DNA of 64,000 nt, taken from a virus. This document shows positions 3,599 to 51,789 of the stretch, one piece after another; position 1 is the stretch's first letter, and each line of letters opens with the position of its first letter. Below the pieces are notes generated by a model. It saw only the letters and a list, made by a program, of their open reading frames with translations. It was not told the origin of the DNA and did not search any database. The stretch lies in IMG/VR virus record IMGVR_UViG_3300044616_001452; one strand, given 5' to 3'. The position numbers and the translations under genes are program-made.

Positions 3599-6081
3599 TG
3601 GGTGTATCCGCCGGACCAAATGTAGTAAGAGACAGTGATTACCAAGTACACGTTTGTACTGGTTCGGGATCTTTTGTACCCAACTTTACAGGAACAGTTG
3701 AGGTTCTTGTTGTTGCTGGCGGCGGTGGCGGTGGTATGGACATGGGTGGTGGAGGTGGAGGAGGTGGTGTTCTCACTAGCACAACCTATGCAGTCACATC
3801 AGGATCAGGCATAACTGTCACTGTCGGCGCTGGCGGTGTTGGAGCACCTTCAGGTGGACCTCCACAACCATGGGGGCATCAATTTACAGCTAGTGCAACC
3901 TCAGGTGGCAACTCAGTTTTTGGTTCACTAACTGCTGTTGGTGGTGGATACGGAGGAAGTTCTTATTTCGGGTATACTCCAAATAATGGTTATGGTGCAA
4001 ACGGTGGTTCAGGTGGAGGTGCTTCAGGTTATTCAGATGGTAGCACTGGCAGAAATGGATCGGGTACAGTAGGGCAAGGAAATGCAGGCGGCGGTAGCAT
4101 AGGGCAATATTATTCTGGGGGTGGAGGTGGTGCCGGTGCAGCAGGTTCAAACGGTGGCACTGCAAATGGTGGTGCAGGAGTTTTAAACAACATTTTAGGT
4201 GGTGGAAAAAACTATTATTGGGCCGGCGGAGGTGGCGGTTCAGGTTACAGCAGCGGCACTGGCGGGAACGGTGGGTTAGGTGGAGGTGGTGGCGGTACAC
4301 CAGGAGGAACATCTAACGGATTAGGTGACACAAACGGATTAAATCCTGGAAGAAATGGTGGTATGGGACCAGGGGGTAATTGGACTAATGTTCCAGGAGG
4401 TGATGGAGGTAAAAATACCGGTGGTGGCGGTGGTGGTGGGAACCATTATAATCGAAGCAATAGAGGAGGCAATGGTGGTTCAGGAATAGTAATCATACGC
4501 CATCTCAAGTCTTCCGGAACATCAACATTTAACGGGCTTGCAGACAATAGAAGCTCTATTATATTCAATATGGACCCAGCAAATATTGCAAAAGGAATGG
4601 CTGTAGAAGTTTTAGTTGTTGGAGGTGGCGGCGGTGGTGGTATGGACATGGGTGGTGGAGGTGGGGGAGGTGGTGTTGTATATAATCCAGCAATGAGAGT
4701 ACAATTAAATGCTGCTATGACTGTGATAGTCGGTGCAGGAGGCAATGGATCACCTGGTACTTATGGAAGTAATCCTGTGACTGGATTCACTGGAGGAAAT
4801 TCATCAGTTGGAGAAGTTGTTGGCTATGGTGGAGGTGGCGGTGGTTCTGGGCACTCATCAAGCCCAGGATATGCTGGAAATTACACAGGTTCAAGTGGAA
4901 ATGGTGGAGGAGCTGGCGGCGACGCTGCATACTCTGGTGGCGGTAGAGGAATGGGTAGTGATCCTGCACCATTAGATGTACCTCAAGGATATTCGGGAGG
5001 TTCGGCAAAACCATACGCATATGGAGCAGGTGGCGGTGGAGGATCCAATAGACCTGGTGCTGCTGGTAGATATCATGGGCAACAGTCTGGAGGTAATGGC
5101 GGAGACGGGGTATTTTCATCAATTGCTGGAACTGGATATTATTGGGGTGGCGGAGGAGGTGGTGCATCATGGGATGTCACCTCCGGAGGAAGCGGAGGTG
5201 CAGGTGGTGGAGGCGGAGGCAGTGTATACAATGGGTTTACGCCAGGTTCTGGAGATACTAACGGATATAATGCAGGAGGTAATGGAACAGCGGCATCCAG
5301 TTCTAATGGTGGTGCCGGTGGCGCTAACACCGGAGGTGGAGGAGGTGGTGGCACACACTCACACTCTGTTGGCGGAAATGGTGGTTCCGGAATTGTAATC
5401 ATTCGTTACTATGGTTCACAAAAAGCTACAGGTGGAACTATTACTTCTTCTGGTGGATATACAGTACACACGTTTACAAGCTCAGGAACATTTACACCTA
5501 CTGATAATATAGGTGCAAGGGATATGGGACCGTTTAATAATGGATTGACAGCAATTAGTGTCACATATAATGCATCAAATGGAGGATACTTTTCTTGGAG
5601 TGAAGGAGTGAATGCTAGAATACAAAGTTCAAATGCAAATTTTTCATTTGGTACTGGAGATTTTACTTTAGAATGTTGGATAAATCCTACTAATTTTAAT
5701 AATTATACACATATGATAGCACTTCCAGATCAAAACACATTTGCACTCAAAGCAAACGTAAATGATGGAGCAATATATTTTTATAGCCCAAGTTTCTCTA
5801 CTTATCCAACTTCGGGATGGACTCTGACTGCTGGTGTTTGGAACCATGTAGTAATGACCCGTGCTAGTAGTACGTCCTATAGTTATTTAAACGGTGTTCT
5901 TAAAGGATCGAAAGCAGGATTTACAAACTCGTTTGGTGAACAAATATTAAACATTGGTAATGGTTTTAGCAATGAATATACAGCAAAAAGTATAGCAGCG
6001 GTTAAAATATATAACAAAGCACTAACCGCCGATGAAGTGTATCAGAATTTCGTATCCATGCGTGGGCGTTATGGAATATAA
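3598..6081 (+). CDS. Glycine-rich fibre/adhesin protein with two Gly-rich domains and a C-terminal LamG domain
   Basis: Two copies of VEVLVV(A/G)GGGGGGMDMGGGGGGGGV...GGSGIVIIR; LamG motifs FTLECWINP, WNHVVMTR, IYNKALTADEVYQNF. Confidence 0.75.
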   Translation: MGVSAGPNVVRDSDYQVHVCTGSGSFVPNFTGTVEVLVVAGGGGGGMDMGGGGGGGGVLTSTTYAVTSGSGITVTVGAGGVGAPSGGPPQPWGHQFTASATSGGNSVFGSLTAVGGGYGGSSYFGYTPNNGYGANGGSGGGASGYSDGSTGRNGSGTVGQGNAGGGSIGQYYSGGGGGAGAAGSNGGTANGGAGVLNNILGGGKNYYWAGGGGGSGYSSGTGGNGGLGGGGGGTPGGTSNGLGDTNGLNPGRNGGMGPGGNWTNVPGGDGGKNTGGGGGGGNHYNRSNRGGNGGSGIVIIRHLKSSGTSTFNGLADNRSSIIFNMDPANIAKGMAVEVLVVGGGGGGGMDMGGGGGGGGVVYNPAMRVQLNAAMTVIVGAGGNGSPGTYGSNPVTGFTGGNSSVGEVVGYGGGGGGSGHSSSPGYAGNYTGSSGNGGGAGGDAAYSGGGRGMGSDPAPLDVPQGYSGGSAKPYAYGAGGGGGSNRPGAAGRYHGQQSGGNGGDGVFSSIAGTGYYWGGGGGGASWDVTSGGSGGAGGGGGGSVYNGFTPGSGDTNGYNAGGNGTAASSSNGGAGGANTGGGGGGGTHSHSVGGNGGSGIVIIRYYGSQKATGGTITSSGGYTVHTFTSSGTFTPTDNIGARDMGPFNNGLTAISVTYNASNGGYFSWSEGVNARIQSSNANFSFGTGDFTLECWINPTNFNNYTHMIALPDQNTFALKANVNDGAIYFYSPSFSTYPTSGWTLTAGVWNHVVMTRASSTSYSYLNGVLKGSKAGFTNSFGEQILNIGNGFSNEYTAKSIAAVKIYNKALTADEVYQNFVSMRGRYGI

Positions 6082-11110: not shown

Positions 11111-12007
11111 ATGAAATATAGTATTTTTCATTTGCAAGGTGGAATTGGAAAGCATATCGCAGCAACGGCCGTTGCGAAAACAATTAAAAATAATCATCCT
11201 GATAGGAAATTAATTGTTGTCTGCGCCTACCCAGAAATTTTTATTAATCTAAATTTTGTTGATAGAGTTTTTACATTAGGAAATACAAGTTATTTTTATC
11301 AAGAATATATTCAGGATAAAGACTCAATCATCTTTCATCATGAGCCATACTACACCACTAATCACATTCATAAAAGAAAAAAACTTATACCAAACTGGTG
11401 TGAAATGTATGGTTTGAATTACAATAATGAATGGCCAGAACTGAAGTTCAATAAATTGCAATATGATTTATCTAAAAGGCATTGGCTAAGAAAAAAACCC
11501 ATCATGTTAATTCATACCAATGGCGGTATGATGACAATTGATGCAAAATCATATGCATGGACAAGAGATATGCCAGAAAGCATAGCTCAAGAACTGGTCG
11601 ATCACTATAAAAAAGATTATCATATCTATCAAATTACTAAATTGAATTCACCAAAATTAAACGGTGCTGAACATATTTTTGCCACTCAACAACAATCATT
11701 GACACTGATGGAACTGTTTAGTTTAATACTACACAGTAAAAAAAGAATCTTTATTGATTCTTGTATGCAACATGCAGCAGCCGCAATGAAAAGGAAATCA
11801 ACAGTTCTTTGGAATGGCACCAGCCCTAAAGTTTTTGGATATGATGTACATGACAATATAAGCACAGAAATTCCATACGACTTCAAATTACCAGGAAGTT
11901 ATCTTTTTGATTTCGACTTTAATGGTAATGAATTAGAATATCCGTTTACTGATGATGTTAAATTATTCGATATAAATAAAATCATCGAGTCTGTTGATAA
12001 ACAATAG
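11111..12007 (+). CDS. GT9/heptosyltransferase-like (GT-B) protein
   Basis: GGIGKHIAAT N-terminal motif and IDSCMQHAAAA...VLW...P..FGY; start placed at ATG 11111 rather than 11036. Confidence 0.7.
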   Translation: MKYSIFHLQGGIGKHIAATAVAKTIKNNHPDRKLIVVCAYPEIFINLNFVDRVFTLGNTSYFYQEYIQDKDSIIFHHEPYYTTNHIHKRKKLIPNWCEMYGLNYNNEWPELKFNKLQYDLSKRHWLRKKPIMLIHTNGGMMTIDAKSYAWTRDMPESIAQELVDHYKKDYHIYQITKLNSPKLNGAEHIFATQQQSLTLMELFSLILHSKKRIFIDSCMQHAAAAMKRKSTVLWNGTSPKVFGYDVHDNISTEIPYDFKLPGSYLFDFDFNGNELEYPFTDDVKLFDINKIIESVDKQ

Positions 12008-45300: not shown

Positions 45301-45375
45301 CTGGCCGTCGTTCAATGGATAGGACAGCATTCTTCTAAAGTGCGAATGGGGGTTCGATTCCCTCCGGCCGGGCCA
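45301..45375 (+). tRNA. tRNA-Arg(UCU)
   Basis: CTGGCCG/CGGCCGG acceptor, loop CTTCTAA, TTCGATT T-loop, encoded CCA. Confidence 0.93.
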
Positions 45376-46425: not shown

Positions 46426-47169
46426 ATGAAAACTGCTTTATTATTGACAGGTAATCCAAGATTTTCAAAAGACTTCGATTCACAGATACATAATCTAAAA
46501 AATAGCGAAATAGATTGGTATATTTGTTTTTGGAAAAGAGAAGAAGGTTTTGATCCAAAAATATCCAAAAATTGGCATGTGAAAAATTCTTGGCAAGTGT
46601 TGGAAAAAATAAAACCTTTTCTTCCACCTGGGCATAGAATTAAATATATTGAACTTCTCGATCCTAACGATTACTCCGTTTTGCCTTACGATTATCAAGA
46701 CTATTACAGTAATCCAATAAACATCTGGCAACAATATAAAATATTACAATATTGTGATAGGTGGAGAAGAGAATTAGATTCTTATGATTTAGTTATTCGT
46801 TCAAGAACAGATTTAGGGCTTAGTGAAAATATCGATTTAAAATTGGCGTACAGTTGTTTGTCTAAAGATTCGAAGGTCATTTATACACCTAATAATCAAA
46901 GAAACGGCTATATAGCAAATGTCGGTGGTTATCAAACCGGATTTTGTGACCAATTTGCAATAGGGTTACCACACATAATATCGGCATATTGTGATTCTAT
47001 AGATAAATTTCATGATTTGTATATGTCAGGCACAAAATACAATCCGGAATATCTTTTACAAACTGCACTGATGAACGAAGGTATAACTTGGCCTCCAACT
47101 TCTTTTGAGATAATAAGAGAAAATATACACTGGCAACCTATTGACCATGGAAAATGGGCGAACGTGTAA
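46426..47169 (+). CDS. Hypothetical protein, possible glycosyltransferase-like; paralog of 40403-41146
   Basis: ALLLTGNPR, YDLVIRSRTD, CDQFAIG. Confidence 0.55.
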   Translation: MKTALLLTGNPRFSKDFDSQIHNLKNSEIDWYICFWKREEGFDPKISKNWHVKNSWQVLEKIKPFLPPGHRIKYIELLDPNDYSVLPYDYQDYYSNPINIWQQYKILQYCDRWRRELDSYDLVIRSRTDLGLSENIDLKLAYSCLSKDSKVIYTPNNQRNGYIANVGGYQTGFCDQFAIGLPHIISAYCDSIDKFHDLYMSGTKYNPEYLLQTALMNEGITWPPTSFEIIRENIHWQPIDHGKWANV

Positions 47170-47235
47170 ATATTTTTATAAAAAATTAATAAAAAGCCTA
47201 TATACCTGTATATTAAATTTTTTACGGAGATTTTT

Positions 47236-47340
47236 GTGTTAGTCTTATCCAAACCTACCTTTACAACATGCGAGTATCGCCCAAGCATTGCCGGCGATAA
47301 TCTGTCATGGATACAAGGTACAAGGGGTTTGATGAGTTAA
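47236..47340 (+). CDS. Putative attenuator leader peptide (34 aa, GTG start; not in ORF track)
   Basis: GGAG 6 nt upstream of GTG; MLVLSKPTFTTCEYRPSIAGDNLSWIQGTRGLMS*; 3' end contains anti-terminator AGGGGTTTGA. Confidence 0.7.
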   Translation: MLVLSKPTFTTCEYRPSIAGDNLSWIQGTRGLMS

Positions 47341-47366
47341 AGTTCCAAAAAGTTCCAAAAATTCTC

Positions 47367-47398
47367 AAACCCCTAGATCGAAAGACTAGGGGTTTTTT
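47367..47398 (+). terminator. Intrinsic terminator upstream of the tRNA array (candidate attenuator)
   Basis: AAACCCCTAG-a-TC-GAAA-GA-CTAGGGGTTT-TTT. Confidence 0.88.
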
Positions 47399-47401
47399 GT
47401 T

Positions 47402-47474
47402 GTTGTATAAAAACAACAGTGTATTGCCAAGACAAGCAAATGCTACTATAATACACATATACGTTCTTTAAAAA
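47402..47474 (+). promoter_or_regulatory. tRNA-array promoter 1 with upstream GTTG-N8-CAAC box and downstream boxA-like site
   Basis: GTTG-TATAAAAA-CAAC (47402-47417); TTGCCA-17-TATAAT (47424-47452); GTTCTTTAAAAA (47463-47474). Confidence 0.8.
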
Positions 47475-47489
47475 TTAGATGTAACTTGT

Positions 47490-47563
47490 TGGGGTGTGGT
47501 GAAATGGTATCACACAGGATTTTGATTCCCGTATTCTTGGTTCGATTCCAAGCACCCCTGCCA
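47490..47563 (+). tRNA. tRNA-Gln(UUG)
   Basis: Cloverleaf, loop TTTTGAT, CCA; U1-U72 mismatch. Confidence 0.9.
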
Positions 47564-47570
47564 AAATTTA

Positions 47571-47658
47571 GGAAGCGTGGTCGAGTGGTCTATGGCGCCA
47601 GTCTTGAAATCTGGAGGTCCGAAAGGGTCCGTGAGTTCGAATCTCACCGCTTCCGCCA
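47571..47658 (+). tRNA. tRNA-Ser(UGA)
   Basis: GGAAGCG/CGCTTCC, loop CTTGAAA, long V-arm, CCA. Confidence 0.93.
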
Positions 47659-47666
47659 AATTTAAT

Positions 47667-47756
47667 GGAGTGATCCCATAATGGTATTGGAGCGGATTGC
47701 TAATCCGTCGGTTTGCGAAAGCAGGCTTCTGGGTTCGAGTCCCAGTCACTCCGCCA
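47667..47756 (+). tRNA. tRNA-Ser(GCU)
   Basis: GGAGTGA/TCACTCC, loop TTGCTAA, long V-arm, CCA. Confidence 0.93.
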
Positions 47757-47758
47757 AC

Positions 47759-47853
47759 GGTAGGTAGCACTGGTGTGCGGCTGAGTCTTATAAGCTCGGG
47801 AGATCGGTCAGATGGGCTGAAACGGAAGGGTTCGAATCCCTTACCTACTACCA
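47759..47853 (+). tRNA. tRNA with UAU anticodon (Ile) and atypical long variable arm
   Basis: GGTAGGT/ACCTACT acceptor, loop CTTATAA, AAGGG-TTCGAAT-CCCTT T-arm, A73, CCA. Confidence 0.8.
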
Positions 47854-47860
47854 AATACAT

Positions 47861-47938
47861 GCACAGGTGGCAGAGAGGCCCAATGCAAGAGTCTGCAAAA
47901 CTCTAAAGCCGTCGGTTCGAATCCGACCCTGTGCTCCA
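47861..47938 (+). tRNA. tRNA-Cys(GCA)
   Basis: GCACAGG/CCTGTGC, loop CTGCAAA, U73, CCA. Confidence 0.93.
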
Positions 47939-48054
47939 GTTGCAATAAAACAACGTTGTAAAAATACAACAAAATCGAAGTTGACAACGGTACCAATACC
48001 TGTATAATTGATTCTGTTGTCGATGCAGTAGTGATAACAAACGATCTTTAAAAA
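47939..48054 (+). promoter_or_regulatory. tRNA-array promoter 2 with tandem GTTG-N8-CAAC boxes and boxA-like site
   Basis: Boxes at 47939-47954 and 47955-47970; TTGACA-16-TATAAT (47981-48008); GATCTTTAAAAA (48043-48054). Confidence 0.78.
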
Positions 48055-48069
48055 AAATAGCTGTTCAAT

Positions 48070-48144
48070 GCACGGTTCGTCTATCGGTTAGGACGCTAGC
48101 CTTTCACGCTGGAAAGACGGGTTCGATTCCCGTACCGTGTACCA
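48070..48144 (+). tRNA. tRNA-Glu(UUC)
   Basis: GCACGGT/ACCGTGT, loop CTTTCAC, CCA. Confidence 0.93.
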
Positions 48145-48266
48145 TATTGAAGCACATTAGAATCTGTAAAAAGATCCAGGGTTGGTACACCTCATGACTT
48201 TCGGCCGTGCTGAGTTTACGGAAACAAGCGGAAGCATGCATAGACCGTAGTGTGTTTCAATATGGT
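48141..48266 (+). ncRNA. Candidate ncRNA closed by an 18-bp stalk (copy 1)
   Basis: ACCATATTGAAGCACATT pairs with AGTGTGTTTCAATATGGT. Confidence 0.6.
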
Positions 48267-48267
48267 A

Positions 48268-48429
48268 ATAGGGTTCTGTCCCGTAAGGGAATGGTAACGA
48301 AAGTGCCTTCCAATATGTTCGGTGGCCAACGAGCATAGATGCGGAATGTATGAGTAGAGAGGTGAACGAAAGTTTGCGATAAAGCCCCGGTAGGCCTAAG
48401 CATGTAATGTGTACAAAGTACATCCCTGT
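48268..48429 (+). ncRNA. Candidate multi-hairpin ncRNA
   Basis: Several GNRA-capped hairpins (TCCC-GTAA-GGGA, GTGAAC-GAAA-GTTTGC) inside a closing ATAGGG/CCCTGT helix; no credible ORF. Confidence 0.5.
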
Positions 48430-48439
48430 ATCAATTTTC

Positions 48440-48526
48440 GGGTGCGTAGCCAAATGGTTGACGGCAGCAGACTGTAAATCTGTGACATAAGAAACGCTGG
48501 TGGTTCGAATCCATCCGCACCCACCA
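48440..48526 (+). tRNA. tRNA-Tyr(GUA)
   Basis: GGGTGCG/CGCACCC, loop CTGTAAA, V-arm, CCA. Confidence 0.93.
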
Positions 48527-48528
48527 AT

Positions 48529-48602
48529 GCGGGTATAACTTAGTGGTAAAGTAGCTGGCTTTTAACCAGCAAATCCGAGTTCGATTCTCGGTGCCCGTAC
48601 CA
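48529..48602 (+). tRNA. tRNA-Lys(UUU)
   Basis: GCTGG-CTTTTAA-CCAGC, CCA. Confidence 0.93.
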
Positions 48603-48606
48603 AATT

Positions 48607-48683
48607 GCCCTCTTACTCCAATTGGTAGAGAGGACGGTCTTAGAAGCCGTAGAGTCTCAGTTCGAATCTGAGAGAGGGCACCA
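48607..48683 (+). tRNA. tRNA-Leu(UAG) with short variable loop
   Basis: GCCCTCT/AGAGGGC, loop CTTAGAA, A73, CCA; 77 nt. Confidence 0.88.
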
Positions 48684-48779
48684 TATTGAAGCATTCTAAA
48701 CTGGACGCAGGATCGGGGAAAGTCAAAAGCGGGTTGATCACCACAAGTAGACTGGAGATCAAGAGTGCTTTAATATGGT
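48680..48779 (+). ncRNA. Candidate ncRNA closed by an 18-bp stalk (copy 2)
   Basis: ACCATATTGAAGCATTCT pairs with AGAGTGCTTTAATATGGT. Confidence 0.6.
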
Positions 48780-48851
48780 TCCATAGTATATCGGCGAGTA
48801 TAGCGCCCTGTCACGGCGCAGGAACGGGTTCGAATCCCGTTGGGACCGCCA
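48777..48851 (+). tRNA. tRNA-Asp(GUC)
   Basis: GCGCC-CTGTCAC-GGCGC, G73, CCA. Confidence 0.93.
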
Positions 48852-48853
48852 AT

Positions 48854-48927
48854 ACCTGATTAGCTCAAAGGTAGAGCACCCGGCTGATAACCGGAAGACA
48901 CTGGATCGTTACCAGTATCAGGTACCA
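48854..48927 (+). tRNA. tRNA-Ile(GAU)
   Basis: ACCTGAT/ATCAGGT, loop CTGATAA; atypical T-loop ATCGTTA; CCA. Confidence 0.88.
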
Positions 48928-48933
48928 GATTTA

Positions 48934-48982
48934 GTTGTTTATATACAACAGTATTGCCAAGTTCGATATATAGTTATATAAT
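48934..48982 (+). promoter_or_regulatory. tRNA-array promoter 3 with GTTG-N8-CAAC box
   Basis: GTTG-TTTATATA-CAAC (48934-48949); TTGCCA-17-TATAAT (48954-48982). Confidence 0.8.
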
Positions 48983-49051
48983 GTTTTTCAAGTCGGGAGA
49001 CTTTAAGAAGTACGCCGTTTCCTTCGGGTAACCCTGTATACGGTAAGCAGG

Positions 49052-49250
49052 ATTTTTATTGTTGTCGTTTTGGAAAATACCTGTGAACGCAGGTTAGTGA
49101 ATCTGTCAATGTGTGGTTAATTCGAATAGACCACGTATACAGTTGTTATCAAGTGAAGACCTTTTGGACGCATTAGGAATAAGCTTGGTCGTTAAAATCA
49201 AACGCCAGTACGGTGAAGGCTGGCTATAACGAAACGACAACAATAAAAAT
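49052..49250 (+). ncRNA. Candidate ~200-nt structured ncRNA closed by a perfect 19-bp stem
   Basis: ATTTTTATTGTTGTCGTTT (49052-49070) / AAACGACAACAATAAAAAT (49232-49250) with internal hairpins. Confidence 0.65.
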
Positions 49251-49251
49251 T

Positions 49252-49326
49252 GGGCTGCTAGTGATAATGGGAGCACGCCGCCTTTGCACGGCGGAGGTTG
49301 GAGTTCGATCCTCCAGCGGTCCACCA
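49252..49326 (+). tRNA. tRNA-Ala(UGC)
   Basis: G3-U70 pair, loop TTTGCAC, CCA. Confidence 0.93.
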
Positions 49327-49332
49327 AGTTTC

Positions 49333-49406
49333 GCCCCTATAGTTAAATGGTATAACAGTTGACTTGTAATCATCAATTTCCAGTTCGATTCCGGGTGGGG
49401 GCACCA
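49333..49406 (+). tRNA. tRNA-Thr(UGU)
   Basis: GCCCCTA/TGGGGGC, loop CTTGTAA, CCA. Confidence 0.9.
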
Positions 49407-49414
49407 ATTTTAAG

Positions 49415-49492
49415 CCGAGTGTAGGATAGTCCGGTCATTCCGCCTGCTTTGGGAGCAGGAAATCGTGTGTTCGAATCACACCACTCGGACCA
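49415..49492 (+). tRNA. tRNA-Pro(UGG)
   Basis: CCGAGTG/CACTCGG, loop TTTGGGA, CCA. Confidence 0.93.
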
Positions 49493-49498
49493 GTTTAT

Positions 49499-49574
49499 TC
49501 CGGAGTAGCACAGAGGTAGTTGCGTCTGACTGTTAATCAGAATGTCGTTGGTTCGATCCCAGCCTCCGGAGCCA
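49499..49574 (+). tRNA. tRNA-Asn(GUU)
   Basis: TCCGGAG/CTCCGGA, loop CTGTTAA, CCA. Confidence 0.93.
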
Positions 49575-49580
49575 GTTGAA

Positions 49581-49655
49581 GGTAATGTAGCATAACGGTA
49601 GTGCGCCTCCTTCATACGGAGAAAAGTGTTGGTTCAACTCCAACCATTACCACCA
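49581..49655 (+). tRNA. tRNA(CAU), probably elongator Met
   Basis: GGTAATG/CATTACC, loop TTCATAC, CCA. Confidence 0.85.
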
Positions 49656-49667
49656 AAGGAGATTATT

Positions 49668-50555
49668 ATGTTGTTGGATGAAATTATTTCTGTTCCATAT
49701 ACTACTCATCCTAAGATGACGAAAAATAAAGGCAACATTTTCAACAAAACTCCAAATTTAGATTATATTCGTTCTAAAGAAAAAGAGTTAAAACAATTTG
49801 CTCCTGATTTGTGTGCCGAGACATTTGAAAATATCTCAAAGCAACTTGTTCGAAAAAGTTCAATCTACTGTGGTGTACCACAAACAGATTCAATGATTGA
49901 ATTTGCAATGAATTTTGAAGAAGATGTTGCAATTATGCATAACGGAAAATTATCAGGAATTTGTTTCTGTTTTCCAAGCAGTTGGATTCCTAAAAAACGC
50001 ATAGGTATGTCTCTAGAAGATATTCATTCACAAGTTGCGGATAATGAAAGACTTATAAAAATGAGCGCAAAAATTGCAAGCACAATGGCTGATCCTGTTT
50101 TAGGTTCTTTTCGAAGATATGTATGGACGATTACAAATAATCCTGAATTGAGTAATCATCCAAAAAGAAAAAGTATGATTGTTCCTAAAAGTTTAGATGA
50201 TTTGTATTTTAGACTTGAAACTCAAACAACTGCACCTATAGGTGACTGTGTGACAAGTTTGTTCTTTGTTAAAGTTCAAGTAATTCCTCTTAGTCATGTC
50301 TGGGGAAGTTACGGTAAACTAATTACTAACAGTGTAAATTCTATGAGTGATGCAATCTTGGAATACAAAAATCTAAAGCATATTAAAACGGTCCTTAGTT
50401 CAATGGATCAGAACACCGGGCTACGAACCCGTGAGGTTGGGAGTTCGAATCTCTCAGGACCGGCCAACCATAATTTGAAAGATGAGTATTATGATATTCT
50501 TACAACTGAAGATTGTTTAGTTAAAGATTCTCCCAGTGGTGTAAAGGCAACATAA
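49668..50555 (+). CDS. DUF3445 / heme-dependent oxidative N-demethylase alpha-subunit-like protein; frame runs through tRNA-Arg(ACG) into tRNA-Trp
   Basis: EEDVAIM, CFCFPSSW.P..RIG..L..IH..V, R..WTI, YFRLETQT motifs; AGGAG RBS before ATG 49668. Confidence 0.7.
   Translation: MLLDEIISVPYTTHPKMTKNKGNIFNKTPNLDYIRSKEKELKQFAPDLCAETFENISKQLVRKSSIYCGVPQTDSMIEFAMNFEEDVAIMHNGKLSGICFCFPSSWIPKKRIGMSLEDIHSQVADNERLIKMSAKIASTMADPVLGSFRRYVWTITNNPELSNHPKRKSMIVPKSLDDLYFRLETQTTAPIGDCVTSLFFVKVQVIPLSHVWGSYGKLITNSVNSMSDAILEYKNLKHIKTVLSSMDQNTGLRTREVGSSNLSGPANHNLKDEYYDILTTEDCLVKDSPSGVKAT
50389..50466 (+). tRNA. tRNA-Arg(ACG)
   Basis: CGGTCCT/AGGACCG, loop CTACGAA, CCA. Confidence 0.9.
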
Positions 50556-50603
50556 GAGTCTCCAAAACTTTTGATTGCGGTTCGAATCCGTACTGGGAGG
50601 CCA
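50530..50603 (+). tRNA. tRNA-Trp(CCA)
   Basis: CTCCCAG/CTGGGAG, loop CTCCAAA, G73, CCA. Confidence 0.9.
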
Positions 50604-50621
50604 TTTTATCAGAGGTGGATT

Positions 50622-51092
50622 ATGTACAACAAAAAAATTAATCTAGAAGAAGTTAAATCGTTTATTGAAAGCTGTGGTCCCAATACCAAAGTTTATCTTG
50701 GTTGTGACTCGGAAAAAGTTAAAATGAATGGTGTTTGGCATGCTGATTATATTATAGCCATTGTTGTGCATATGAATAGCAAAAATGGTTGTAAAATTTT
50801 CGGGCAAATCACTCGTGAACGTGACTATGATCAAGCTCGCAATAAGCCACGTATGCGTCTGATGAATGAAGTTTATAAAGTTGCAGAAATGTATCTGAAT
50901 CTTGCGGCAATCATTGATGTGGATATTGAAGTACATCTTGACATTAACCCAAATGAAGAGTATAATTCAAATATCGTAATTAATGAAGCAATTGGCTATA
51001 TAAAAGGCATGTGTAATGTTGTTCCTCTTGTAAAACCAAATGCTTTTGCTGCGTCTTATGCAGCAGATAGATTGAAGAGTCTTGCAGCATAG
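50622..51092 (+). CDS. RNase H-like protein, YkuK/DUF458 family
   Basis: VYLGCDS, RLMNEV, EVHLDIN, VKP.AFAASYAAD; ATG 50622 after GAGG. Confidence 0.8.
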   Translation: MYNKKINLEEVKSFIESCGPNTKVYLGCDSEKVKMNGVWHADYIIAIVVHMNSKNGCKIFGQITRERDYDQARNKPRMRLMNEVYKVAEMYLNLAAIIDVDIEVHLDINPNEEYNSNIVINEAIGYIKGMCNVVPLVKPNAFAASYAADRLKSLAA

Positions 51093-51098
51093 AATATA

Positions 51099-51173
51099 GC
51101 GGGTATGATGTTAACGGTAGCATGACAGCCTTCCAAGCTGATCGAATCGGTTCGAATCCGATTACCCGCTCCA
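51099..51173 (+). tRNA. tRNA-Gly(UCC)
   Basis: GCGGGTA/TACCCGC, loop CTTCCAA, U73, CCA. Confidence 0.93.
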
Positions 51174-51179
51174 AAATTT

Positions 51180-51256
51180 GCGGCTATGGTGTTTAACGGT
51201 TAGCACGAGACCTTGCCAAGGTTTAGGTTCCAGTTCGAATCTGGATAGCCGCTCCA
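51180..51256 (+). tRNA. tRNA-Gly(GCC)
   Basis: GCGGCTA/TAGCCGC, loop TTGCCAA, CCA. Confidence 0.93.
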
Positions 51257-51262
51257 ATCAAT

Positions 51263-51337
51263 GGTGTCTATGGTGTAGTGGAAGCATTACTCTCTGTGAA
51301 AGAGTAGGTACGAGGTCGGTACTCGTTAGACACCCCA
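51263..51337 (+). tRNA. tRNA-His(GUG) with encoded G-1
   Basis: G-1:C73, loop CTGTGAA; atypical T-loop GTCGGTA. Confidence 0.9.
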
Positions 51338-51338
51338 G

Positions 51339-51412
51339 GCTTCGTTAGTTTAATGGTAGAACACCGCCCTTACAAGACGGTTACGGCAGTTCGATTCTGT
51401 CACGAAGCACCA
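51339..51412 (+). tRNA. tRNA-Val(UAC)
   Basis: GCTTCGT/ACGAAGC, loop CTTACAA, CCA. Confidence 0.9.
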
Positions 51413-51416
51413 ATTT

Positions 51417-51492
51417 GCCGCTTTAGCTGATGTGGTCATAGCAACGGTCTGAAGAGCCGTGGAATCTGGTTCGATTCCAGAAGGCGGTACCA
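51417..51492 (+). tRNA. tRNA-Phe(GAA)
   Basis: Loop CTGAAGA (G37), CCA. Confidence 0.9.
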
Positions 51493-51493
51493 T

Positions 51494-51522
51494 TTGACAA
51501 GTTACATTTAATTTGATATAAT
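51494..51522 (+). promoter_or_regulatory. Perfect-consensus sigma70 promoter (tRNA promoter 4)
   Basis: TTGACA-17 nt-TATAAT. Confidence 0.85.
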
Positions 51523-51532
51523 GTTTTATAAT

Positions 51533-51620
51533 GCGGATGTGGCGAAATTGGTGAAACGCAGCAGACTTAAAATCTGCCACATTAGAAACACTGCGGGTTC
51601 GAATCCCGCCATCCGCACCA
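51533..51620 (+). tRNA. tRNA-Leu(UAA)
   Basis: GCGGATG/CATCCGC, loop CTTAAAA, V-arm, CCA. Confidence 0.93.
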
Positions 51621-51628
51621 AGTTTAAA

Positions 51629-51707
51629 GGGCCTCTAGCTCATGCATGGTTAGAGCAGCGAACTCATAATTCGTTGGTGCGGGGTTCGACTCCCCGGGGG
51701 CCCACCA
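51629..51707 (+). tRNA. tRNA(CAU), probably Ile2 (lysidine-type)
   Basis: GGGCCTC acceptor typical of Ile2, loop CTCATAA, CCA. Confidence 0.8.
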
Positions 51708-51715
51708 GATTCAAT

Positions 51716-51789
51716 CGCGGGTTAGAGAAACGGTATCTCAGAAGCCTCATAAGCTTCAGTTGTTGGTTCGACTCCAGCACCCGCTACCA
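51716..51789 (+). tRNA. tRNA(CAU), initiator fMet-like
   Basis: CGCGGG 5' end, C1-U72 mismatch, loop CTCATAA, CCA. Confidence 0.85.

Follow-up and report, generated by a model that had tools for sequence, protein, structure and literature searches.

A candidate ribosome-dependent leader-peptide attenuator with near-complete amino-acid coverage ahead of a phage tRNA array

The trpL and hisL attenuators each sense one amino acid through tandem codons in a leader peptide (two Trp codons and seven His codons, respectively). In both, region 2 of the RNA switch lies at the end of the open reading frame (ORF), region 3 overlaps an arm of the terminator, and fast translation leads to termination. Multivalent leaders also exist; the ilvGMEDA leader, 32 codons long, senses Ile, Leu and Val, and the thr leader senses Thr and Ile. 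Here, we analyze an element that shares the layout of trpL and hisL but has no tandem codon repeats, and that is followed by an array of transfer RNA (tRNA) genes in an uncultured phage. The window under study is the whole 64,000-nucleotide (nt) stretch from virus record IMGVR_UViG_3300044616_001452, and the element occupies positions 47186-47398 within it (Table 1). From its anatomy and from comparison with its relatives, we consider it likely that the element is a ribosome-dependent leader-peptide transcription attenuator placed before the phage tRNA array, and that more tRNAs are probably made whenever ribosomes decode slowly. A broader proposal, to which we give slightly less than even odds, is that the element is a general translation-capacity sensor, whose leader lists the amino acids of the downstream tRNAs (here all 20), detects slow decoding of any codon class, has the replacement tRNA set transcribed and shuts it off when decoding recovers.

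The reason that phages carry tRNA genes is a fifty-year-old question. Proposed roles are codon compensation, making good the loss of host tRNAs that have been degraded, and evading defences that cleave tRNAs (PMC10264068, PMC11464382, PMC12409363). How the expression of phage tRNA arrays is controlled is not stated in the literature that we found. We also found no published account of attenuator control of such arrays, and prior work in subscription journals is possible. An earlier note on this DNA, made from the letters by a model, had proposed that a short ORF rich in different codons gates the array through attenuation. Its coordinates for the ribosome-binding site, the start and stop codons, the terminator and a 10-nt stretch (47323-47332) perfectly complementary to 47365-47374 are all correct. 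A recount gave the same 19 amino acids (no His) and 30 distinct codons, and both the 26-tRNA array and the sigma70-like promoter past the terminator are present. The geometry of an attenuator that it described also holds up, with start signals, a terminator, a covarying and mutually exclusive antiterminator and a stop codon in a masking position all in place.

We sought relatives in IMG/VR and in metagenomes, starting from the protein encoded upstream, the hairpin of the terminator, looser terminator patterns and the sequence around the promoter. The members came from searches keyed on the terminator or the downstream context and not on the ORF. The first round gave 17 distinct versions (the members analyzed below unless stated otherwise), falling into nine peptide clusters with 12-43% identity between clusters. 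In total, at least 23 distinct relatives of the element were recovered; they form about 11 peptide clusters with less than 45% identity, and all of them lie on contigs of uncultured T4-like phages. A search with 15 AT-rich bases from around the tRNA promoter returned more than 110 loci, nearly all unrelated, and the metagenome scan returned mostly the ends of 5S ribosomal RNA genes followed by terminators, together with a handful of true members. All members contain a promoter, an ORF of 32-46 codons, a covarying antiterminator helix and an intrinsic terminator, and every member with enough downstream sequence has a tRNA array, of up to 32 tRNAs, within about 130 nt of the element. The gene upstream of the element is a different one in L006 and L008. 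The first tRNA behind the element is tRNA-Gln (anticodon TTG) in most members; it is tRNA-Ser in the L007 and L008 type, tRNA-Glu in L136, tRNA-Gly in L283 and tRNA-Tyr in L291.

The covarying part of the element is its RNA switch. To count base pairs, we aligned the members without gaps, took the G-run of region 2 and the C-run of region 3 as anchors, and included cross-cluster and sliding controls; a MAFFT alignment was set aside for these counts, as three of its rows had region 2 shifted by one column. In all 17 members, the helix between regions 2 and 3 (the 2:3 helix) forms its first eight pairs. Position 7 of this helix is a GC pair in nine members, TA in five, AT in two and GT in one. 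Across positions 7-12, 75% of the cells are paired, compared to 48 +/- 4% when the partner is drawn from another cluster (none of 2000 shuffles reaches 75%) and 37-48% with the partner displaced by 1-3 nt. Positions 4 and 5 of the terminator stem also covary across the family. The C-run used by the 2:3 helix is also part of the terminator's 5' arm, and the two structures are mutually exclusive. When the nascent RNA is folded up to the terminator loop, the 2:3 helix appears in 14/17 members; when the leader is folded alone, region 2 pairs in most members with an early C-rich segment, region 1 (codons 4-9), and most members have a similar short C-rich motif in the corresponding early codons. All three alternatives (1:2, 2:3 and 3:4) would then be available, with 1:2 as a predicted pairing.

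The position of the switch relative to translation is conserved as well. Region 2 is conserved as nucleotides, yet it is read in codon phase 0, 1 or 2 depending on the member, and the C-terminal residues of the peptides differ. The stop codon follows the first G of region 2 by 10-20 nt in 17/17 members, with 21-31 nt between the stop and region 3 throughout the family. In the window, the spacing between region 2 and the stop (Table 1) is such that region 2 would be hidden under a ribosome that has come to the stop codon. Stop codons from the start of the ORF up to region 2 number 0, 30 and 39 in the three forward frames of the 17 members, and the reverse strand of the family has no conserved open frame; for this reason a gene on the opposite strand was dropped as a candidate. 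Also dropped was an ORF at 47307-47471, which spans the terminator and the downstream promoter.

Two main types of translation start were found in the family. Nine members have a GGAG followed after 6-7 nt by GTG or TTG. In at least nine others, the -10 hexamer of a good sigma70 promoter is followed 6-7 nt later by the start codon, which in every case is ATG. Leaderless initiation requires an ATG start, and in this second subfamily the leader messenger RNA (mRNA) is, by its sequence, probably leaderless. To our knowledge, no leader-peptide attenuator with a leaderless mRNA has been described. Loci of the leaderless type are L136 (357-385, minus strand), L195 (1480-1517), L151, L177, L260, L271, L287 and L194. 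In L161 and L173, an ATG start stands behind an AAGGA-type ribosome-binding site.

We now turn to the amino-acid content of the leader. The window ORF has 19 amino-acid types and 30 distinct codons. In 34-codon segments of the phage's own genes, the corresponding numbers are 14.7 +/- 2.1 types (P = 0.008 for 19 or more) and 22.3 +/- 2.8 codons (P = 0.0004 for 30 or more); among the 174 small ORFs of 30-38 codons in the six frames of the window, two reach 19 types and one reaches 30 codons. The earlier note had emphasized codon diversity and the spread of synonymous codons over isoacceptors. The first part stands, as 30 codons do exceed those gene segments. The second is only a weak trend, because the codon count given the peptide is ordinary (29/33 versus an expected 27.3 +/- 1.6, P = 0.23), and the excess consequently resides in amino-acid coverage. 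A single ORF that was chosen for its diversity is unconvincing when taken alone.

Comparative data are provided by the family. The 17 members encode 18-20 amino-acid types in 32-46 residues and seven of them encode all 20, compared to means of 14.7-16.4 types under a length-matched null (per-member P from 0.0001 to 0.048). Combining the worst member of each of the nine clusters by Fisher's method gives P = 6e-13, a figure to be read as an order of magnitude and not as an exact probability since the clusters are not strictly independent. The window's cluster, the only one picked for diversity, adds 6 of the 98 chi-square units. The absent residue varies by member (His, Val, Ala, Arg or Cys), and Cys, Trp and His are enriched 3.8, 2.0 and 1.9 fold, respectively, over the proteome. 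Each of the 18-20 types is used one to three times, without tandem or clustered regulatory codons. When the count is limited to codons with an A site over 12 nt ahead of region 2, there remain 17-20 types in 24-36 codons. Across these diverged peptides, the conserved property of the leader is its coverage of the 20 amino acids.

Next, we examined loci from an out-of-sample scan of IMG/VR. The scan used a fresh terminator pattern, and hits were kept only if a tRNA lay within 400 nt, blind to any ORF. Nine hits carry the region 2 signature of the family, and each of them has 20/20 amino acids. L283 and L291 define two further clusters (identity to earlier finds of 36% and 32%, respectively) and likewise have 20/20 amino acids; they are without the region 2 signature of the family, and folding gives them antiterminator pairings of their own.

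The same scan brought up four unrelated phage loci (L047, L270, L275 and L300) where a small ORF with 13-15 amino-acid types precedes a terminator, and where the leader's content follows the tRNAs behind it. In L047 (minus strand), 22/32 leader residues are Gln, Arg, Ile, Asp or Ser, the exact set of the next seven tRNAs (P = 1e-6), whose order is three tRNA-Gln and then Arg, Ile, Asp and Ser. The set Pro, His and Gln makes up 8/26 leader residues in L270 (P = 2e-3), Arg, Leu and Gln make up 11/24 in L275 (minus strand; P = 2e-4), and Gln, Phe and Arg make up 10/30 in L300 (minus strand; P = 2e-3). We read these four loci as putative leader attenuators at tRNA sub-arrays, each limited to the roster of its own tRNAs. 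The window matches the same rule, with 19 amino acids in its leader and 20 in its array, and its leader would be the limiting case, in which a complete array stands behind a complete leader. By linking what the ORF encodes to the tRNAs, the roster rule is an independent line of evidence for sensing.

According to the mechanism that we propose, the leader's own promoter (P1) would start a short transcript, and its 34-codon ORF would be translated at once. Region 2, in the last codons of the ORF, could pair with region 3, whose C-run would also serve the 5' arm of the terminator. A fast ribosome would reach the stop codon and cover region 2; the terminator would form, and transcription would end before the tRNA genes. 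A ribosome delayed in the first 25 codons or so would leave region 2 free to capture nascent region 3, the terminator would not form, and transcription would read through into the tRNA genes. If no ribosome were present, region 1 would hold region 2 and termination would again be allowed. Because every amino acid occurs once to three times and without runs, the switch would report the supply of all aminoacyl-tRNAs, and thus the general decoding speed. Slow decoding would raise the output of the complete tRNA set, and a filled tRNA pool would lower the output again, closing a feedback loop. We infer the change of read-through with translation, the direction of the response and its natural trigger from anatomy and conservation. 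Candidate triggers are a poor host tRNA pool, the cleavage of tRNAs by host defences, or simple self-limitation.

The earlier note had the leader fed by late-like motifs upstream; instead, the window element has its own sigma70-type promoter, P1, which is near-consensus in relatives. At the P1 position, the -35 hexamer is consensus and the spacer 17 nt long in both L133 and L134, and the -10 hexamer is perfect in L133 and matches at 5/6 positions in L134. The transcript start predicted for P1 in the window lies a few bases 5' of the GGAG. A T4-type late motif (TATAAATA) does replace the sigma70 promoter before the leader in L009 (about 4020-4060), L011 (about 4860-4900) and L161 (minus strand), where the attenuator may be driven late in infection. 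Within the window, the ORFs with starts at 11994, 25695 and 63113 have TATAAATA 23-36 nt upstream. On the other side of the terminator, the second promoter (P2) is conserved in the close subfamily. A consensus promoter scan from the terminator to the first tRNA found nothing in loci of the L195 type (L293, L297 and L309 too, by sequence) or in L136, where the first tRNA starts about 40-50 nt past the terminator. The array in these loci would consequently be reachable only through the attenuator.

RNA runs were searched as assembled contigs, which covered mainly the tRNA parts and relatives. One 242-nt metatranscriptome contig of low depth, from an L009-like relative, is the only hint of a transcript that bridges the terminator. 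It stretches from region 2 over the terminator and P2 and enters tRNA-Gln, and may stem from carried-over DNA. Riverine metatranscriptome contigs of relatives show tRNA-Ile(TAT) directly after tRNA-Ser, skipping what corresponds to 47650-47758 of the window, and the order of the array thus varies among strains. In the window, tRNA-Ile(TAT) is at 47759-47853; it is 95 nt long and has a long extra arm.

Several observations weigh against the attenuator and sensor proposals. In the window, P2 sits between the terminator and the array, and read-through from the weak P1 would therefore merely add to P2-driven transcription. The element is absent as a whole from L004, L005, L068 and L101, where the missing 230 bp correspond to a junction of window positions 47170 and 47399; the stop of the upstream gene, whose protein is about 80% identical, leads there directly to the palindrome, P2 and the array. 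The earlier note had looked to relatives for a short ORF with a poorly conserved peptide, high diversity and a covarying antiterminator and terminator; all of this was found, with high amino-acid diversity, but these close relatives do without the element. Judging from the junctions, the element is gained or lost as a unit, and is accessory and not essential. A member-like element in L194 (615-857), made up of a promoter, a leaderless 40-codon ORF with all 20 amino acids, an antiterminator and a terminator, lies on a 1.2-kb contig after a fragment of an AhpD-like gene and before a small ORF, with no tRNA. Most members lack one amino acid whose tRNA is still in the array (His in the window), and the spread of synonymous codons beyond amino-acid coverage is a weak trend. 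Full coverage is not universal, as L047 is a weak relative with 13 amino-acid types, though it fits the roster rule. The 1:2 pairing comes from single-sequence folds only. Finally, the window phage is uncultured and has no cultured close relative.

Other explanations have to be weighed against the same evidence. The ORF could be an ordinary small phage gene with the 34-residue peptide as its product, in which case its tRNA neighbourhood would carry no regulatory meaning and the 2:3 pairing would shape or stabilize the 3' end of the mRNA. Such a gene would explain why the ORF is conserved together with its start signals, why it has its own promoter and terminator while P2 can drive the window tRNAs independently, and why relatives can dispense with the element. 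We nonetheless regard it as unlikely. The identity between peptide clusters is 12-43%, the conserved residues coincide with RNA motifs, and the reading of region 2 in three codon phases yields unrelated C-termini, with no Pfam or PHROG matches. A small gene would leave a selected helix that rivals the terminator for the same C-run without purpose. It would also leave unexplained the 18-20 amino-acid types in every cluster and the constant place before tRNA arrays, including in members without a second promoter. Another explanation, in which a chance ORF happens to lie beside the terminator of the upstream gene (46426-47169), starts from the fact that 34 codons are not rare in AT-rich DNA, as the 174 ORFs of similar length in the window illustrate. 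The conservation of the ORF, its start signals, its stop position and the helices over about 11 diverged clusters, and the different upstream gene in L006 and L008, refute this explanation in practice, and we give it almost no credence.

The product could alternatively be the terminated leader transcript of about 170 nt, acting as a trans-acting small RNA or a dual-function RNA, with read-through control secondary or absent. The transcript would run from a discrete promoter to a discrete terminator and has a strong fold (z = -4.2), and there is precedent in liberated attenuator RNAs with functions in trans (PMC6614838, PMC7968998); one of them, the attenuator RNA rnTrpL of Sinorhizobium, is described as acting in trans (PMC6614838). 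We think this quite improbable as a replacement for the attenuator proposal, with which it is compatible: the sequence outside the switch helices is poorly conserved, a target is not known, and amino-acid coverage and the single open frame would go unexplained. The terminator could also act as an insulator that shields P2 and the array from upstream transcription, with the ORF and the helix tuning its tightness through translation and with an amino-acid content unrelated to sensing. The placement of the terminator directly upstream of P2 and the palindrome in the window's subfamily suits this explanation. It fits poorly with members that have no P2, with a dedicated P1 immediately upstream, with conserved amino-acid coverage and with the roster-matched leaders at other tRNA blocks, all of which point to sensing; we judge it slightly less probable still. 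The attenuator remains our preferred interpretation of the element.

Table 1. Features of the leader element and of the adjoining tRNA array in the window
Feature	Position	Strand	Description
P1, the leader's own sigma70-type promoter	47186-47214	+	9/12 matches, 17-nt spacer; weaker than P2
Motif of 10-11 nt within the P1 spacer	47196-47206	+	From alignment; more conserved than the promoter hexamers
Shine-Dalgarno GGAG	47226-47229	+	6 nt before the GTG start
Leader ORF, 34 codons and stop	47236-47340	+	GTG start; TAA at 47338-47340; 19/20 amino acids, no His
Region 1 (anti-antiterminator)	47245-47261	+	Codons 4-9; predicted partner of region 2 in an untranslated leader
Internal hairpin between regions 1 and 2	47267-47309	+	From folds; arms kept or co-varying in the close subfamily
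Region 2 (5' half of the antiterminator)	47323-47337	+	Last five codons of the ORF
Stop codon	47338-47340	+	14 nt after the first G of region 2
A-rich spacer	47341-47364	+	11-nt unit twice in tandem (47341-47362)
Region 3	47365-47374	+	Pairs with region 2 (antiterminator) or, via its last five bases, with region 4 (terminator)
Intrinsic terminator	47370-47398	+	Hairpin 47370-47392, -12.9 kcal/mol (folding), then six T (47393-47398)
Palindrome GTTG-N8-CAAC	47402-47417	+	Just upstream of P2
P2, sigma70-type promoter	47424-47452	+	11/12 matches; between terminator and array
tRNA array, 26 genes	47490-51789	+	Starts with tRNA-Gln at 47490

Further details of the element are listed in Table 1. The leader region has a minimum free energy of -56.8 kcal/mol and is more stable than its shuffles by the z-score given above. 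The terminator hairpin was passed over by a simple terminator scan owing to a bulge, and was recovered by folding. Neither the element nor the leader peptide has a match in Rfam, Pfam or PHROG. The motif within the P1 spacer is found at the matching place in L006, L007, L008, L130, L132, L133 and L134; in L132 it occupies the expected -10 position, with the ATG 6 nt further on. The window has no second exact copy of this motif, and for that reason it cannot be assigned as a promoter class. The A-rich tandem repeat is kept in L009 and L011 and not in other members. The palindrome GTTG-N8-CAAC has four copies in the window (47402-47417, 47939-47954, 47955-47970 and 48934-48949) versus 1.3 expected by chance. 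All four lie immediately upstream of sigma70-type promoters of the tRNA array. The palindrome is kept in relatives, even in those without the leader, and may serve as the operator through which a dimeric regulator controls the tRNA promoters.

The window phage is a T4-like myovirus on the evidence of its sheath protein, portal, major head protein, large terminase, and a DNA polymerase that is about 50% identical to those of cyanomyoviruses, and it is found in lake-water metagenomes. In a blastn comparison of the window element and two other variants with cultured phages, tRNA-Gln was the only match. Together with a tRNA-Arg at 45301-45375, the 26 tRNAs of the array cover all 20 amino acids.

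If the proposal is true, the phage measures decoding speed and adjusts its tRNA supply by feedback. The hypothesis that phage tRNAs replace those lost from the host would become directly testable, as depleting any one aminoacyl-tRNA is predicted to raise read-through. The element would also be the first ribosome-mediated attenuator known to act on tRNA genes, as well as the first whose amino-acid roster is complete by design, and it would be a compact natural part for reporting global translation capacity.

Among systems that sense the translation apparatus, the T-box riboswitches of Gram-positive bacteria share with the proposed role of the window element the sensing of tRNA charging, a choice between antiterminator and terminator, and genes of the translation apparatus as targets. 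In contrast, a T-box binds one specific uncharged tRNA directly and without a ribosome. The window element has no Rfam match to this class, and a scan with the T-box covariance model at a permissive E-value gave sub-threshold chance hits only. The erm, cat and toiL leaders likewise use a short ORF that reports the general progress of ribosomes, but they respond to ribosome drugs, act mostly through translation attenuation or Rho, and none is known to be linked to tRNA genes. Among published systems, the multivalent ilv and thr leaders come closest in their logic. These have a translated leader of similar length, 1:2, 2:3 and 3:4 hairpins, an intrinsic terminator, a blocking stop codon, and more than one amino acid sensed. 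They differ in that their regulatory codons are clustered and their targets are biosynthetic enzymes, whereas the window element belongs to a phage, stands before tRNA genes and spreads its codons over the amino acids without runs; part of its family, unlike the ilv and thr leaders, appears to use leaderless mRNAs. The element would thus extend classical attenuation in three respects, with RNA genes as its target, complete coverage in place of codon runs, and leader mRNAs that are in part leaderless.

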